The notes under the pieces: model-generated
Database searches by the model: none
Told to the model about the DNA's origin: nothing
The model's input: only the letters and a program-made list of their open reading frames with translations
Part shown: positions 1,831-17,168 of the stretch, piece after piece
Numbering within the stretch: position 1 is the first letter of the stretch
How the letters are laid out: each line of letters opens with the position of its first letter
Assembly (NCBI GenBank): GCA_963676565.1
Contig: OY781089.1
Location: 1,696,001-1,760,000 of the forward strand
Direction of reading: 5' to 3'
Source of the DNA: Halarcobacter sp.
GTDB taxonomy: Bacteria; Campylobacterota; Campylobacteria; Campylobacterales; Arcobacteraceae
Length of the DNA: 64,000 bases
Position numbers and translations under genes: made by a program

Positions 1831-2733
1831 TTATTGATAATTTATATAATAAGGTTTTTCCCAGATTTTTCTACCAAAACTCTCTTCAAAACCTAAAATT
1901 TCTTTTGGGCTCATGATTTTTGTATCAGTTTCATAAAATATTTTAAATCCACTTTTTGCAATATCTTGTTCTTCTTGAGTATAAAGATTATTGTAGATTT
2001 TTATTTTTACAGCAGGGTTTCCATGTCCATCAATATTATAGATTAGATTCACGTTATCAAATTTTTTAACTTCATCTTTTTTTCTTAACATTCTTTGATG
2101 AAACATATGAACTATCAACTCTTTTTTATTTAAATTATTCTCTTCAATATAATCATTTACTAATTTTTGAACTTCATTTAAATCATGGGCAAATATATGA
2201 CCAACATACCTTCCTGGTGGGTATCTTCTATGCTTTGGGATTTTAAATTCTGGATCAAGTGCTAAGTGTACATTATCATACTTAAGATATTTTAATACAA
2301 TTTTTACAGCTTCACTTGGGGTATTTGTTCCCATTTGAAGATCAATAATTACTTTAAACTCTTCCATTTTTGCTCTATTGATAAAATTCATTAAACTTTT
2401 ATGAGATAGTCTTAACATATAATCATTTCTTTTACCTGCATCAGGAGTAGCTAATCCATAGATTATATGAAATGCCATTTGAACTTCAAAGTTATCACCT
2501 AACTCTTTTTCATAAAATGATTTTTTATCATGCATCTTTTTGACTAGTGCATCTAAATTACTTTGACCTAATACACCAAGAGATTTAGTGTTTGGTCTTC
2601 CATAAAAACCTATTAAGATTTTTTCTTTTTCTATAGTTGTTTTTATTGTATTATTTGCAAAAATATTGTCCACAAAAAATAATATAAAAAGTGCTAATAT
2701 TTTTATAATCTTCCCCATTATCATTTTCCCCAA
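1831..2733 (-). CDS. Conserved exported hypothetical protein
   Basis: N-terminal signal peptide; enzyme-like motifs IGFYGRP, IIDLQMG, HLALDPEF, IVHMF, IDGHG, GFKIFY. The true start may be a few codons into the ORF. Confidence 0.7.
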   Translation of the reverse strand: MGKMIMGKIIKILALFILFFVDNIFANNTIKTTIEKEKILIGFYGRPNTKSLGVLGQSNLDALVKKMHDKKSFYEKELGDNFEVQMAFHIIYGLATPDAGKRNDYMLRLSHKSLMNFINRAKMEEFKVIIDLQMGTNTPSEAVKIVLKYLKYDNVHLALDPEFKIPKHRRYPPGRYVGHIFAHDLNEVQKLVNDYIEENNLNKKELIVHMFHQRMLRKKDEVKKFDNVNLIYNIDGHGNPAVKIKIYNNLYTQEEQDIAKSGFKIFYETDTKIMSPKEILGFEESFGRKIWEKPYYINYQ

Positions 2734-3668: not shown

Positions 3669-4847
3669 ATGATTGCAGAAATAGTATTTGCTGCAGGGTG
3701 TTTTTGGGGTGTTGAAAAACATTTTGAATCAATTCCTGGAGTAGTTGATGTAAAATCTGGATATGTTGGTGGTAATTATGAAAATCCAACATATAAAAAA
3801 GTATTAAAATATAGAATGTCAAATGATAAAACTATAGTAAACTATACTGAAGGTGTTCTTGTAAAGTTTGATAAAGAAAAGATTGATGCAAAGGCACTTA
3901 TAAAATCTTTTTGGGAAATTCATGATCCAACACAGTTAAACCGTCAAGGTAATGATATTGGAAACAATTATAGAAGTGCAATTTTTTATACAAACGATTA
4001 TCAAAAAGAAACTGCACTTAATACAAAAGTAAAATATCAAAAACTTCTAGAACAGGCTGATTATGGTAAGATAGTTACACAAATACAACCTTTAAAAAAG
4101 TTTTGGGAAGCTGAAAATTATCACCAAGACTATTTAAAAAATAACCCAAATGGCTATTGTCCAAATCATGCTACAGGGGTGAAATTTGAACCTGAAAAGA
4201 TAAGTTATCCTGATTTGATCCCTTTAGGAAATAAAGAGATTATTGTAGTTGAATCAGAAGGTTATTGCCCTTATTGTGAAAAATTTGAAAAAGATGTTTT
4301 ATCCTCTTATAAAGGGACACTTCCTATAAGAAAAGCAGTTTCAAAACAATTGGATAAATTTGAAATAAAAACAAAACTATATGCAACACCAACAATTTTA
4401 TTTATTGAAGATGGAAAAGAGGTATTCTCTCACAAAGGTTACTTAAGTAATAAAGAGTTTTATGAGGTCTTTGGAAAGTTCAAATTAGGTGAGGATACTG
4501 AAAGTTTCAACGTAGCTTTTAACAAAGGCACTGACAATAGGTTTTGTAAACAGTATGAAATTTTTAAAAATACTCCTGATGGAGTCTTTGTAGATAAATT
4601 GTCAGGTGAAATTTTATTTGATACAAAAGATAGATTTAATTCAGGTACTGGATGGTTAAGTTTTTACAAAGCAGTTGATGGTTCAACTATTGAAAAAACT
4701 GATTTAAGTTATGGAATGATTAGAACAGAAGTATTAGCTAAAAAAAGTGGAATTCATTTAGGTCATGTTTTTGATGAGATGGGGCATAGAAGATTTTGTA
4801 TCAATGCAACAGTTTTAGATTTTGTTCCAAGAGATGAGGTGCAATAG
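3669..4847 (+). CDS. msrAB: Peptide methionine sulfoxide reductase, MsrA-thioredoxin-MsrB fusion
   Basis: MsrA motifs GCFWG, HDPT, YRSAIF, AENYHQDY, GYC; a central CPYC/TPT thioredoxin fold; MsrB motifs SGTGWLSF, RTEV, HLGHVF, RFCIN. Confidence 0.92.
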   Translation: MIAEIVFAAGCFWGVEKHFESIPGVVDVKSGYVGGNYENPTYKKVLKYRMSNDKTIVNYTEGVLVKFDKEKIDAKALIKSFWEIHDPTQLNRQGNDIGNNYRSAIFYTNDYQKETALNTKVKYQKLLEQADYGKIVTQIQPLKKFWEAENYHQDYLKNNPNGYCPNHATGVKFEPEKISYPDLIPLGNKEIIVVESEGYCPYCEKFEKDVLSSYKGTLPIRKAVSKQLDKFEIKTKLYATPTILFIEDGKEVFSHKGYLSNKEFYEVFGKFKLGEDTESFNVAFNKGTDNRFCKQYEIFKNTPDGVFVDKLSGEILFDTKDRFNSGTGWLSFYKAVDGSTIEKTDLSYGMIRTEVLAKKSGIHLGHVFDEMGHRRFCINATVLDFVPRDEVQ

Positions 4848-5534
4848 TTGCCTGGACGTTTAGCTATTTTTGATGATAAAAAATTTAAAGAGGACTCAAA
4901 AGATTTAATAAAAAATGATATGGTTGGGGCTTTATTGCCAAAATATAATATAGCTCCAACTTTACCAATACCTACACTTTTAAACAATGGAAACTATTTA
5001 TATAGCCATTTTGGATATCTACCTTCATGGGCAAAAGATAAAAAAAGTATGAATATAAACGCAAGAAGTGAGTCTATCTTTGAAAAACTTACCTTTAGGG
5101 ATTCTTTTCGATATAGACGTTGTATTATCCCAATAAATGGCTTTTTTGAGTGGGAAGTAGAAGATAAACAGAAAACTCCATATTTTGTAAAAGATAGCAA
5201 AAATGATTATTTAGCAATTGCTGGGGTTTGGGATGAGTATTTTGATATTGATTTAAACATGAAAATAGTTACTGTCGCCTTAATTACTTGTGATGCAAAC
5301 GAAAAGTTAGGAAAGATTCATCACCGTATGCCAGTAGTATTAGAAAAAAAAGATTTTTCTAAATGGTTATATAGTGAAAATCTAAAAGAGATTAATTCAC
5401 TTTTTAATATATATCCAAGTGAAAATCTTGACCTTTACGAAGTTTCATCAAATGTAAATAAAGTTTTATTTGATGAACCCTCGTGTATTAAAAGCTTAGA
5501 AAAAGTAGAAATAGGGCAAAAAACTCTATTTTAG
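4848..5534 (+). CDS. SRAP (SOS response-associated peptidase; YedK/HMCES family) protein with N-terminal Pro instead of Cys
   Basis: YNIAPT, PSWAKD, INARSE, RRCIIPINGFFEW and IHHRMPV motifs. TTG start directly after the msrAB stop, with GAGGT SD at 4836-4840. Confidence 0.9.
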   Translation: MPGRLAIFDDKKFKEDSKDLIKNDMVGALLPKYNIAPTLPIPTLLNNGNYLYSHFGYLPSWAKDKKSMNINARSESIFEKLTFRDSFRYRRCIIPINGFFEWEVEDKQKTPYFVKDSKNDYLAIAGVWDEYFDIDLNMKIVTVALITCDANEKLGKIHHRMPVVLEKKDFSKWLYSENLKEINSLFNIYPSENLDLYEVSSNVNKVLFDEPSCIKSLEKVEIGQKTLF

Positions 5535-6071
5535 TAGTTCTACAATTTTTGCTTCAATCTCTTCAGGAGTGGTTATTGAACCATATCTTTCAACTATTTT
5601 TCCATTTTTATCAATTAGAAATTTTGTAAAATTCCATTTTATAGCTTCTGTCCCTGCAAAACCAGGTGCATTTTCTTTTAAGTAAACATATAGTGGGTCA
5701 GCATTCTCTCCATTTACATCAATTTTTGCAAACATATCAAATTTTACTCCAAAAGTTAGAGTACAAAACTCTTGAATTTGTTTATTTGTTCCTGGTTCTT
5801 GGTTAGCAAATTGATTTGATGGAAAACCTAAAACCATAAACTTTTTGTCTTTGTATTTATCAAAAAGTTTTTCCAATCCTTCATATTGATTTGTAAAACC
5901 ACATTTACTAGCAACATTTACAATAAGTAAAACCTTGTCTTTATACTTAGACAGTGAGATCTCTTTACCTTCTATATCTTTTACTTTAAAGTCATAAATA
6001 CTCATTTCCTTCCCTTTTGCTAATGAAAATGACAAACTTAATACAAGTGCCATTAATATTTTTAATATCAT
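5526..6071 (-). CDS. gpx: Glutathione/thioredoxin peroxidase (Cys type) with signal peptide
   Basis: VNVASKCG, GFPSNQF, QEPG and WNFTKFL motifs. Confidence 0.95.
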   Translation of the reverse strand: MILKILMALVLSLSFSLAKGKEMSIYDFKVKDIEGKEISLSKYKDKVLLIVNVASKCGFTNQYEGLEKLFDKYKDKKFMVLGFPSNQFANQEPGTNKQIQEFCTLTFGVKFDMFAKIDVNGENADPLYVYLKENAPGFAGTEAIKWNFTKFLIDKNGKIVERYGSITTPEEIEAKIVELLK

Positions 6072-6138: not shown

Positions 6139-6636
6139 CTAAAAAAAGATATTTTTACCCATGATAACATCATCATGGTCAACAAATCTATTACAATTTA
6201 TGCCCTCTAGTGCTATACAAATATTTTGCCATTGTTTAGAGTGTCCTCCATTTTCATCTGTAAAGTTTCCTTTTACAAACATTAATGCATGGGCATACTC
6301 ATGGGGTAATACATCATTTATCATATATTCAGAACTCTCTTTAAATCTTTTTTTATTTAGATATATTGATATTTGTCCATTATTCGAATAAGTTGCTGCA
6401 CCAAAAAGTTTTGAGGGCATTTTATCGGAGATAATTAAAGGAATCTTTTTATTTATTCCAAATTTTTGATAGCTTAGTTTTTCAAGATAATATTGTTTCT
6501 GTTTAACTTTTTGAACTATTTTTTCATCAAGGGGATTGTTTTTGAAGTTGTAAGTATTAATCCATGAGTAGATTAAAAAAATCGAACCTAAGATTGTAAC
6601 ACCTAAGAAAAAGTAGTTCAATTTTTTTAAAAACAT
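6139..6636 (-). CDS. SprT-like zinc metalloprotease with N-terminal membrane anchor
   Basis: VLPHEYAH...GGHSKQWQ motif; hydrophobic N-terminal helix. Confidence 0.8.
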   Translation of the reverse strand: MFLKKLNYFFLGVTILGSIFLIYSWINTYNFKNNPLDEKIVQKVKQKQYYLEKLSYQKFGINKKIPLIISDKMPSKLFGAATYSNNGQISIYLNKKRFKESSEYMINDVLPHEYAHALMFVKGNFTDENGGHSKQWQNICIALEGINCNRFVDHDDVIMGKNIFF

Positions 6637-6645
6637 CTTACTCTC

Positions 6646-7155
6646 CTAATTAGGAAATGCCTTTAAAAGTACATCTTTATAATGATTTAGTTTTTGCATT
6701 AATCCATCACCGTGATTATTGATATCAGGATGGTACTTTTTAGCTAACTCTTTATATCTTTTTTTTATTTCATCTCTTGTAGGATCACTAGTAAACCCGA
6801 AAAAATCTTTTGCTTCACTAAGTTCAGATAAAGAGTTAAAGCCTCCTTGTCCAAAATTACCTTGATTAAATCCACCTTGTCTAAATCTCTCTTCAAAGTC
6901 TCTAAAATCAAAACCACTATTGCTACTTGAATTTGAACTAAAATCTTGACCATTAAATGTGAATCTAAAACCTTGATTATGGACTTGTTCTTTAAACTTC
7001 TTTTTAAACTGATAAAAAGCGTAATAAGCAATTGCAATTAAAACAAAAATTATAATTAAAAATGTTCCAAAATTTGTAAAAATCAAATAAAGTATTCCAA
7101 AAAATATTCCCCATTTGATTAAACTGTTAATAATATATGCTAATTCTCTACCCAT
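6646..7155 (-). CDS. Membrane-anchored J-domain protein (TM, G/F-rich linker, C-terminal J domain)
   Basis: Two N-terminal TM helices, a QGGFNQGNFGQGGFN linker and IKKRYKELAKKYHPD. Confidence 0.85.
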   Translation of the reverse strand: MGRELAYIINSLIKWGIFFGILYLIFTNFGTFLIIIFVLIAIAYYAFYQFKKKFKEQVHNQGFRFTFNGQDFSSNSSSNSGFDFRDFEERFRQGGFNQGNFGQGGFNSLSELSEAKDFFGFTSDPTRDEIKKRYKELAKKYHPDINNHGDGLMQKLNHYKDVLLKAFPN

Positions 7156-16383: not shown

Positions 16384-17168
16384 TAAATCTCTATTTCAAG
16401 ACCAATTGGACAGTGGTCACTTCCAAATACATCATCTAAAATATAAGCATCTTTTACATAATCTTTTAAATCAGAACTCACATAAAAGTAATCAATTCTC
16501 CAGCCAACATTATTAGCCCTTGCATTTGCTCTATAAGACCACCATGAGTATTTATCTTTTATATCACCATTTATAAGTCTAAAAGTATCAATATATCCAT
16601 GGTCTAAAAATTTTGTAATCCAATCTCTTTCCATTGGTAAAAATCCTGAAGTCTTTTCATTTGCCTTAGGACGTGCAATATCTATTTCAGTGTGAGCAGT
16701 ATTTACATCTCCACAAACAATAATAGATTTTCCCTCTTTTTTAAGATTTTCGCAATGCTCTAAGAATCTATCGTAAAACTCCATTTTATAAACAAGTCTT
16801 TCCTCTTTTGATTGACCATTTGGAAAATATACATTAAAAAAAGCAATATCTTTATTGCCTAAAGTAAAATGAACTTCATTTATTCTTCCTTCATCAAGAA
16901 TATCAACACTTGGACAATTACAAGTAAAGGTAGGTTCTAAGTCTGTGAAAAGTGCTGTTCCACTTCTACCTTTTATAGCAGACTCAGAAGCAAATACTGT
17001 TTTATAATTTTTTTCAAATATTGAATCTGGAATTTGCTCTTTAGAGGATTTTGTTTCTTGAATACCAAGTAAATCAATATTTGCTTCATCAACCCATTTC
17101 AAAGCCTTTTTTTTATCAACTGCTCTAATACCATTTACATTCCACGAGATAAACTTATATCTACTCAT
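16383..17168 (-). CDS. xth: Exodeoxyribonuclease III (AP endonuclease)
   Basis: SWNVNGIRA, QETK, YFPNG, GDVNTAH, GWRIDY and SDHCP motifs. Confidence 0.96.
   Translation of the reverse strand: MSRYKFISWNVNGIRAVDKKKALKWVDEANIDLLGIQETKSSKEQIPDSIFEKNYKTVFASESAIKGRSGTALFTDLEPTFTCNCPSVDILDEGRINEVHFTLGNKDIAFFNVYFPNGQSKEERLVYKMEFYDRFLEHCENLKKEGKSIIVCGDVNTAHTEIDIARPKANEKTSGFLPMERDWITKFLDHGYIDTFRLINGDIKDKYSWWSYRANARANNVGWRIDYFYVSSDLKDYVKDAYILDDVFGSDHCPIGLEIEI

Follow-up and report, generated by a model that had tools for sequence, protein, structure and literature searches.

A 64,000-nucleotide stretch of the genome of a Halarcobacter species (GenBank assembly GCA_963676565.1, contig OY781089.1, positions 1,696,001 to 1,760,000; hereafter the window, in whose own numbering all positions are given) contains a gene for a protein of the SRAP/YedK family in which the second residue is a proline (Pro2) in place of the catalytic cysteine (Cys2). 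The open reading frame (ORF) opens with TTG-CCT-GGA-CGT, which is read as M-P-G-R, and closes with a TAG stop codon at 5532-5534. It directly follows a gene for a fusion of MsrA, thioredoxin, and MsrB (msrAB), whose own TAG stop codon at 4845-4847 lies in the same frame and abuts the TTG start codon of the SRAP gene. The features of the locus are collected in Table 1.

Table 1. Features of the SRAP gene and of its surroundings in the window.
Feature	Position	Strand	Basis or remark
SRAP/YedK-family gene, 228 amino acids (aa), Pro at residue 2	4848..5534	+	ORF listing; Pfam PF02586
GAGGT Shine-Dalgarno-like sequence, 7 nt 5′ of the start and within the msrAB 3′ end	4836..4840	+	Direct sequence reading
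TTG start codon (4848-4850) and CCT Pro2 codon (4851-4853) at the family's Cys2 place	4848..4853	+	Direct reading
F55, Trp in most SRAPs (YedK Trp61)	5010..5012	+	Column contrast of the Pro clade with Cys2 relatives
NARSE, N71-E75 (N71 = YedK Asn75, R73 = Arg77, E75 = Glu79)	5058..5072	+	Profile alignment to YedK chains; 100% kept in the Pro clade
GFFEW, G98-W102 (E101 = YedK Glu105, catalytic acid/base; W102 = Trp106)	5139..5153	+	Profile alignment; invariant in both ortholog alignments
IHHRMP, I157-P162 (H158 = YedK His160, R160 = Arg162)	5316..5333	+	Profile alignment; invariant in both ortholog alignments
C-terminal G-Q-K-T-L-F tail (clade consensus GQLSLF), resembling a β sliding-clamp-binding motif	5514..5531	+	Sequence comparison
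msrA-thioredoxin-msrB fusion gene	3669..4847	+	Pfam PMSR, Thioredoxin_2, SelR
Glutathione peroxidase gene (gpx), convergent, 9-bp overlap with the SRAP 3′ end	5526..6071	-	Pfam GSHPx, E 7e-44
SprT-like protein, HEYAH zinc-protease motif, hydrophobic N-terminus	6139-6636	-	PF10263, E 2.6e-13
DnaJ-domain protein	6646-7155	-	Next to the SprT-like gene
300-aa protein	1831-2733	-	No Pfam match; homologues immediately 5′ of SRAP in 7 of 23 Pro2 loci
Exonuclease III-like gene (Exo_endo_phos, Xth-like), 11 kb from SRAP	about 16413-17150	-	

A preliminary description of this locus had reported the M-P-G-R start with a GAGGT element upstream of it, both of which are indeed present, and had held a single miscall to be unlikely. 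The latter judgement is borne out by contigs from three independent DNA sequencing runs belonging to three studies, which span the gene and differ from it at 13-21 scattered places, none of them within 4845-4859. It is borne out as well by 39 distinct orthologous coding sequences, all of which have a Pro codon at position 2 (CCT in 21, CCA in 15, and CCC in three), preceded by ATG in 26 cases, TTG in 11, and GTG in two. The position of the start, also given in the preliminary description, is fixed by the in-frame TAG immediately 5′ of the TTG, because no start can lie further upstream in the SRAP frame. Pro2 is neither a sequencing error nor an oddity of the strain. The gene is the single SRAP gene of its genome, which has one match to PF02586, and it is covered by zero reads in one RNA sequencing run (oligo-dT, labelled as another organism), which is no measure of its expression.

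The protein belongs over its full length to the SRAP domain superfamily, as found by both profile match and fold. Its residues 1-206 align with positions 1-214 of the 214-position Pfam profile PF02586 (E 8.4e-54, 182.8 bits at a cut-off of 27.1), which is the sole Pfam match at E ≤ 0.001. An AlphaFold2 model has a mean predicted local distance difference test score (pLDDT) of 94.1 and a predicted template modeling score (pTM) of 0.89. When this model was compared with known structures by Foldseek, the top 18 matches listed, among them the YedK entry 8D2M, were all SRAP structures with template modeling (TM) scores of 0.63-0.84, and no significant match outside SRAP was found among those listed at E ≤ 0.001. 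The first 13 of them, which are chains of BT_1218, HMCES, and YedK, show TM scores of 0.74-0.84. The closest solved structure, both by sequence (E 8.5e-27; 6.7e-52 by profile) and by fold (TM 0.84), is that of BT_1218 from Bacteroides thetaiotaomicron (PDB 2F20), a structural-genomics entry with no assigned function, for which the alignments begin at chain residue 45-47.

The substitution at residue 2 defines a whole clade. Among 60 related genomes and the source genome itself (G000), 20 genomes including G000 have a match, and 20 of 20 loci read start codon-P-G-R-L, in which the start is ATG, TTG, or GTG; a set of close orthologs with Cys alone, which would point to decay or an assembly error in this genome, is thus excluded. 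A search of 5.8 billion proteins gave 663 matches, of which the best 120 were examined. PGR[LV] is present in 117 of these (at positions 2-5 in 114 and behind an over-long gene call in three), the other three being N-terminally truncated calls, and the source names given among them are Arcobacter, Poseidonibacter, Arcobacteraceae, and Campylobacteraceae. In species-representative genomes, Pro occupies residue 2 at all 23 loci with at least 53% identity, and Cys at all 56 loci with at most 41% identity, one further locus being cut by a contig end. The 23 Pro2 loci come from Halarcobacter, Arcobacter, Poseidonibacter, metagenome-assembled genomes (MAGs) of Campylobacterales, and one MAG labelled Helicobacter, and at six of them a stop codon stands immediately 5′ of the SRAP start.

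The boundary of the clade was located with the 150 best representatives, clustered at 50% identity, of roughly 21,000 SRAP matches. Two of these are Pro2 proteins (43% and 45% identity), and 129 are Cys2 proteins. The remaining 19 come from gene calls that are too long or truncated; among them is P0267, which begins M-V-A-R and could be either a non-Cys variant or a mis-called start. Over the full-length relatives examined, residue 2 is Pro in all with at least 43% identity and Cys in all with at most 41%. When 400 genomes sampled from the order were searched together with the source genome, 20 of the 401 had any SRAP match. Twelve of the 20 are in the Halarcobacter family (G000 and 11 of 39 others) and have Pro2 in all cases examined, while other families of the order contributed five full-length matches, all Cys2, and three fragmentary ones.

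Trees built from these proteins place the Pro2 members together. An IQ-TREE run with residue 2 masked separated all of 15 Pro rows from 56 Cys rows by a single branch (100 in the Shimodaira-Hasegawa-like approximate likelihood-ratio test, SH-aLRT). In a FastTree of 22 Pro and 136 Cys proteins, one branch with a support of 98 likewise has all Pro rows on one side. The nearest Cys2 relatives are three proteins (P0124, P0125, and P0156) and one further locus (L103) of the same order, and the cluster of P0125 is named for Thiovulaceae and Sulfurimonadaceae. In the sampled part of the tree, the switch from Cys to Pro occurred once, inside Campylobacterales, and the resulting clade consists of SRAPs of Arcobacteraceae and related Campylobacterales that are defined by Pro2 and reach down to 43% identity. 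A phage or mobile origin was also considered and rejected: 16 relatives on viral contigs all have at most 36% identity, and those with a visible N-terminus have Cys.

In 105 pairwise comparisons among 15 orthologues of equal length, the ratio of nonsynonymous to synonymous substitution rates (dN/dS), estimated by the method of Nei and Gojobori (NG86), ranges from 0.07 to 0.31 with a median of 0.17. Codons 2-24 have changed synonymously, while the protein sequence that they encode is conserved. These substitution patterns indicate that the clade is under purifying selection; the tabulation of residue 2 in homologs suggested in the preliminary description has therefore yielded a conserved MPGR clade of the expected kind. 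Furthermore, no second SRAP gene was matched in any searched genome of Arcobacteraceae, the double matches in two of them (G005 and G401) being pieces of one broken gene in each. Gene content thus indicates that the Pro2 protein has replaced the canonical SRAP rather than having been added beside it.

Apart from residue 2, the known functional residues of the family are retained. The preliminary description had noted that the NARSE, GFFEW, and IHHRMP motifs are intact, and all three are present. The Asn/Glu/His trio N71, E101, and H158, which corresponds to Asn75, Glu105, and His160 of YedK, is invariant in both ortholog alignments. YedK contacts single-stranded DNA (ssDNA) through Arg4, Pro40, Trp67, Arg77, Thr149, and Arg162, according to PMC6821365. 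The equivalent residues R4, P37, W61, R73, T147, and R160, among which W61 and T147 were matched to Trp67 and Thr149 by profile alignment, are 99-100% kept in the Pro clade. Moreover, all columns that are at least 85% conserved in 136 Cys2 relatives, including N71, R73, E75, E101, W102, T147, H158, and R160, are retained in the Pro clade with the exceptions of C2P, W55F, and I145L; column A36 is mixed in the clade (Pro 54% and Ala 43%).

A pocket rebuilt around the new residue was considered as well. The only strong additional changes are W55F and I145L. The Cys2 sisters P0124, P0125, and P0156 of the sister alignment share W55F with the clade, so that it is older than the switch from Cys to Pro and is no adaptation to Pro; co-adaptation was rejected accordingly. 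The Cys2 locus L103, which is outside that alignment, reads HFG at the place matching residue 55 when its translation is inspected by eye. A different cysteine, Cys148 (5289-5291), lies beside the DNA-contacting T147 and is present in 99% of the core Pro clade, while 67% of the Cys2 set has Thr there. A role for it as a substitute thiol was rejected as a necessity, since Thr occupies this position in three deep-branching Pro2 members (P0121, L021, and L108).

The whole function accepted for SRAP proteins, which is to shield abasic sites at replication forks by a stable thiazolidine crosslink, depends on the N-terminal Cys. In YedK, the α-amine of this residue first attacks C1′ of the abasic site, with Glu105 driving ring opening and Schiff-base formation. 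Ring closure by the Cys2 thiol follows and gives the thiazolidine, a product favoured approximately 100,000-fold over the Schiff base (PMC9436759). The C2A and C2S mutants of YedK form no stable crosslink; they give an N-terminal Schiff base that can be trapped by borohydride, and they catalyze a Glu105-dependent β-elimination of DNA containing apurinic/apyrimidinic (AP) sites (PMC9436759). Outside the SRAP family, the nucleophile of Fpg is an N-terminal Pro (from a reference in PMC9436759), and mycobacterial Nei2 is an N-terminal-Pro AP β-lyase acting on ssDNA (PMC11323726). The claim of the preliminary description that the Pro2 protein is unable to form the thiazolidine is chemically to be expected, because an N-terminal Pro has no 1,2-aminothiol with which the ring could be closed, and it agrees with the lack of a stable crosslink in thiol-less YedK (PMC9436759).

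Comparison with these systems delimits what the window protein could do. It shares with YedK and HMCES full-length homology, the same fold (TM 0.74-0.79 for the listed chains at ranks 3-13), the same Asn/Glu/His active site, the ssDNA-contacting Arg, Trp, and Thr residues, and a nucleophile, putative in the Pro2 protein, placed at an exposed N-terminus; it differs from them in having CCT as codon 2, and hence Pro2 where the canonical crosslinkers have Cys2, so that their defining thiazolidine crosslink should not be able to form. It differs from YedK also in having Phe55 where YedK has Trp61 and in the GQxxLF tail, which YedK lacks. The C2A and C2S mutants of YedK, the former of which was captured as a Schiff-base complex in 8D2M, resemble it in the absence of a thiol at residue 2 and in fold. 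The amines of these mutants, however, are primary and the product of engineering, and their lyase activity is slow, whereas the window protein bears a natural and selected secondary amine. From the latter, a charged iminium would be expected, and its reaction may be faster than, or different from, that of the mutant amines.

The likeness to Fpg/MutM, Nei, and Nei2 lies in the start Met-Pro, which is conserved in the Pro clade, and in the part proposed for this Pro, that of a Schiff-base nucleophile attacking C1′ on the way to AP-lyase chemistry (PMC11323726 and PMC9436759). The fold and ancestry of these enzymes are unrelated to those of SRAP, and the window protein has neither a Pfam match to the Fpg/Nei families (Fapy_DNA_glyco domain) nor the Glu3, H2TH motif, and zinc finger of these proteins. 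It is therefore no member of the Fpg/Nei family, and nothing suggests that Pro2 SRAPs have base-excision (glycosylase) activity. A Pro2 SRAP probably works like YedK C2A and, by convergence, like Fpg/Nei or Nei2.

The sequence features are compatible with the following course of events, to which we give about an even chance and in which the gene would encode a functional SRAP directed to the replisome: after removal of the initiator Met, the N-terminal Pro attacks abasic sites in ssDNA to form an iminium, and this leads to strand cleavage or to a short-lived adduct without any stable thiazolidine. Methionine aminopeptidase would remove the Met, Pro being a permitted second residue, and would free the secondary amine of Pro; such removal ahead of Pro follows the known specificity of this enzyme. 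The retained SRAP surface (R4, P37, W61, R73, T147, and R160) would bind ssDNA holding an abasic site, E101 and H158 would open the sugar ring, and the Pro amine would attack C1′ to give a charged iminium as in Fpg and Nei. In the absence of a thiol at residue 2, the adduct would be resolved either by β-elimination, which is AP-lyase strand cleavage, or by hydrolysis, in which case the protein would act as a short-lived and reversible shield. The GQxxLF tail would, probably, keep the protein tethered to the β sliding clamp in the course of these steps. Lyase or transient-binding chemistry, as it had been proposed in the preliminary description, is plausible by analogy, while the accompanying idea of an oxidation-proof active site is speculation. 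More comprehensively, Pro2 SRAPs could be natural clamp-tethered enzymes, derived from abasic-site crosslinkers by exchange of the one catalytic residue, that perform Fpg-like Pro iminium chemistry on the SRAP scaffold and thereby incise or reversibly cap abasic sites in ssDNA, a tentative proposition that we consider somewhat less probable than an even bet.

Several considerations weigh against these proposals. The distribution of the gene is patchy: it is found in 19 of 36 genomes of the same family in the related-genome set and in 11 of 39 in the order sample. Degraded copies also occur, with in-frame stops in G005 (L020/L022) and with an internal deletion that removes H-x-R in G401 (L112). 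The degraded copies indicate that the gene is dispensable. The lyase activity of YedK C2A is slow, with a rate constant of 0.05 compared to 1.7 for Schiff-base trapping (PMC9436759), which means that removing the Cys is not by itself enough to yield a good enzyme. In addition, Pro carries a ring that is the carbon analogue of the canonical thiazolidine and isosteric with it; this ring may fill the place of C1′ and hinder the attack. Finally, canonical SRAPs are thought to prevent double-strand breaks at forks, whereas cutting ssDNA at abasic sites in a fork would make them, so that a lyase role needs a physiological rationale.

The possible blocking of the C1′ place is the main argument for a different explanation, in which the protein is a non-covalent binder of abasic sites or ssDNA: the unreactive N-terminal Pro ring would mimic the thiazolidine, and the protein, perhaps while at the clamp, would protect lesions or flag them. 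Proline has an analogue in thiazolidine-4-carboxylate. The pocket could thus take Pro without being rebuilt, which fits the absence of clade-specific pocket changes, and all DNA-binding residues are retained; moreover, YedK C2A still binds ssDNA with a Kd of 7.9 µM compared to 2.2 µM for the wild type (PMC6821365). However, E101 and H158 do not vary within the clade, and the corresponding E105A and H160A mutants of YedK bind DNA more tightly than the wild type (PMC6821365), so that selection for binding only should not hold these two residues. Their retention therefore favours preserved acid-base catalysis, which would feed an N-terminal amine nucleophile, over binding alone. The Pro itself is 100% conserved with turnover of its synonymous codons, whereas a mere filler of space could vary more easily, and on this balance non-covalent binding appears to us rather unlikely. 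It is less likely still, and in our view quite improbable, that the SRAP scaffold has been turned to another substrate or chemistry, such as 3′-unsaturated-aldehyde or 5′-deoxyribose-phosphate ends, or a general-base role for Pro like that in the tautomerase superfamily. YedK also reacts with 3′-phospho-α,β-unsaturated aldehyde (3′-PUA) ends made by lyases (PMC9436759). The source genome encodes two HhH-GPD proteins and the Xth-like nuclease, which produce or process such ends, and neighbours related to oxidative stress recur at the Pro2 loci (gpx at 15 of 23, msrA at two, and DJ-1/PfpI at two). Against this explanation, the whole apparatus for ssDNA binding and ring opening is conserved, pointing to internal abasic sites, every Foldseek match listed at E ≤ 0.001 is a SRAP structure, and the neighbours, whether convergent or divergent, are linked to the gene by synteny and not as partners in an operon.

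The gene might, in principle, be an inactive relic or an artefact, namely a decaying gene, an assembly error, a mis-called start, or a read-through fusion with msrAB in which the Pro is internal. Broken copies do exist in the two relatives mentioned above, and the SRAP frame is continuous with msrAB across a single TAG in the source genome. On the other hand, dN/dS is approximately 0.17 with invariant active-site residues, the three DNA runs agree at the junction, and codons 2-24 are conserved as protein while they change synonymously. Moreover, the junction with msrAB is confined to four genomes, and a stop directly precedes the start at six of the 23 loci. Such a relic or artefact is very improbable indeed, as the comparative sequence data already contradict it. 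Collectively, the Pro2 SRAP is real, conserved, and under selection, and it departs from the known family to which it belongs in a catalytic residue; iminium chemistry at abasic sites is the mechanism proposed for it.

The C-terminal tail is a second distinguishing character of the clade. Of 119 proteins of the Pro clade, 113 have an ending of the form Q-x-x-[LFMI]-F, as opposed to 18 of 136 Cys2 relatives, and it also occurs in the deepest Pro2 members and in the MAG labelled Helicobacter. The most frequent variant is GQLSLF (64 proteins), while GQKTLF, the form of the window protein, is found in 14. Such endings are rare in the source genome, in which six of 2938 ORFs of at least 100 aa have one. 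The clade tail matches QL[SD]LF, which we take to be the bacterial β-clamp-binding consensus, and this resemblance suggests that the GQxxLF tail probably tethers the SRAP to the β sliding clamp. A complex prediction for SRAP residues 181-228 and the DnaN protein of the same genome gave a score of 0.30 relative to a mark of 0.32, and, its controls not having been folded, counts neither way. A PCNA-binding tail has been reported for human HMCES, and a β-clamp tail, if it is one, would parallel the recruitment of HMCES to PCNA; a link between a bacterial SRAP and the clamp was not found in our literature search.

The surroundings of the gene were compared over 23 species-representative Pro2 loci, mostly with 6 kb on each side and in some cases cut by a contig end. 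In the recurring layout, alr and uvrC lie upstream on the opposite strand, and gpx, the SprT-like gene, and the DnaJ-domain gene lie downstream in convergent orientation. uvrC is present at 18 of the 23 loci, gpx at 15, the SprT-like gene at 11, and the DnaJ-domain gene at 10, an arrangement which indicates that the ancestral neighbours of the SRAP gene are a divergent uvrC and a convergent gpx. Both uvrC and the C-terminal tail speak for a setting in replication or repair. At six loci (L025, L026, L027, L032, L034, and L035), uvrC and SRAP are directly adjacent and diverge across a short AT-rich spacer of approximately 21-100 bp, which suggests a shared control region; no obvious shared operator was seen by eye in these six intergenic regions. 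In the source genome, uvrC is located approximately 8.5 kb upstream of SRAP, and five genes including msrAB lie between them within the window. Shared synteny among related genomes is weak evidence of shared function. The proximity of the SprT-like gene is suggestive because SPRTN, a eukaryotic relative of SprT, degrades HMCES crosslinks, but it may reflect plain synteny.

Coupling to msrAB and the position beside gpx had both been used in the preliminary description as arguments for the nature of the active site. The first of these does not carry far, as the msrAB-SRAP junction is local and limited to four close genomes (the source genome, L003, L004, and L023); elsewhere, uvrC, unrelated genes, or intergenic DNA takes its place. 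No promoter-like site was found between msrAB and SRAP in the source genome, which makes co-transcription likely there, but recent. Judged from this arrangement, the two genes probably share a transcript and are coupled in translation, in this genome only. A single read-through of the msrAB TAG would fuse the two proteins. As for gpx, its adjacency is upheld insofar as it is a frequent neighbour, whereas its convergent orientation means that it is not co-transcribed with SRAP.

The repair background of the source genome, which is 99.97% complete, includes the two HhH-GPD proteins already mentioned, one Y-family polymerase, and two S24 peptidases, and no match to the Fpg/Nei domain PF01149 was found in it. 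A linkage of SRAP to the SOS response was considered and rejected, since the polymerase and both peptidases are all encoded far from SRAP and no obvious shared operator was seen by eye in the six uvrC-SRAP spacers.

The second-residue Cys of SRAP proteins has been called "absolutely conserved" in PMC3765255, the paper that defined the family, and the term "invariant cysteine" is also in use in the literature. A description of a natural Pro2 SRAP was not found in our literature search, the coverage of which did not extend to the full family alignment of PMC3765255. The finding that a selected lineage keeps everything but the Cys is read here as a sign that a second mode of action is supported on the SRAP scaffold. 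What YedK C2A is in the laboratory, the clade is in nature, and it could reveal what the Glu/His machinery does alone. It bears, moreover, on a possible convergence of N-terminal-Pro chemistry on a fold unrelated to that of Fpg and Nei, and, if the protein is an AP lyase specific for ssDNA, it may be a useful reagent. For the organisms themselves, the clade bears on the way in which Campylobacterales without Fpg/Nei handle abasic sites in ssDNA: if Pro2 SRAPs incise or reversibly cap these sites, "cut or release" would replace "lock and shield" in bacteria that lack both Fpg/Nei and a canonical SRAP.

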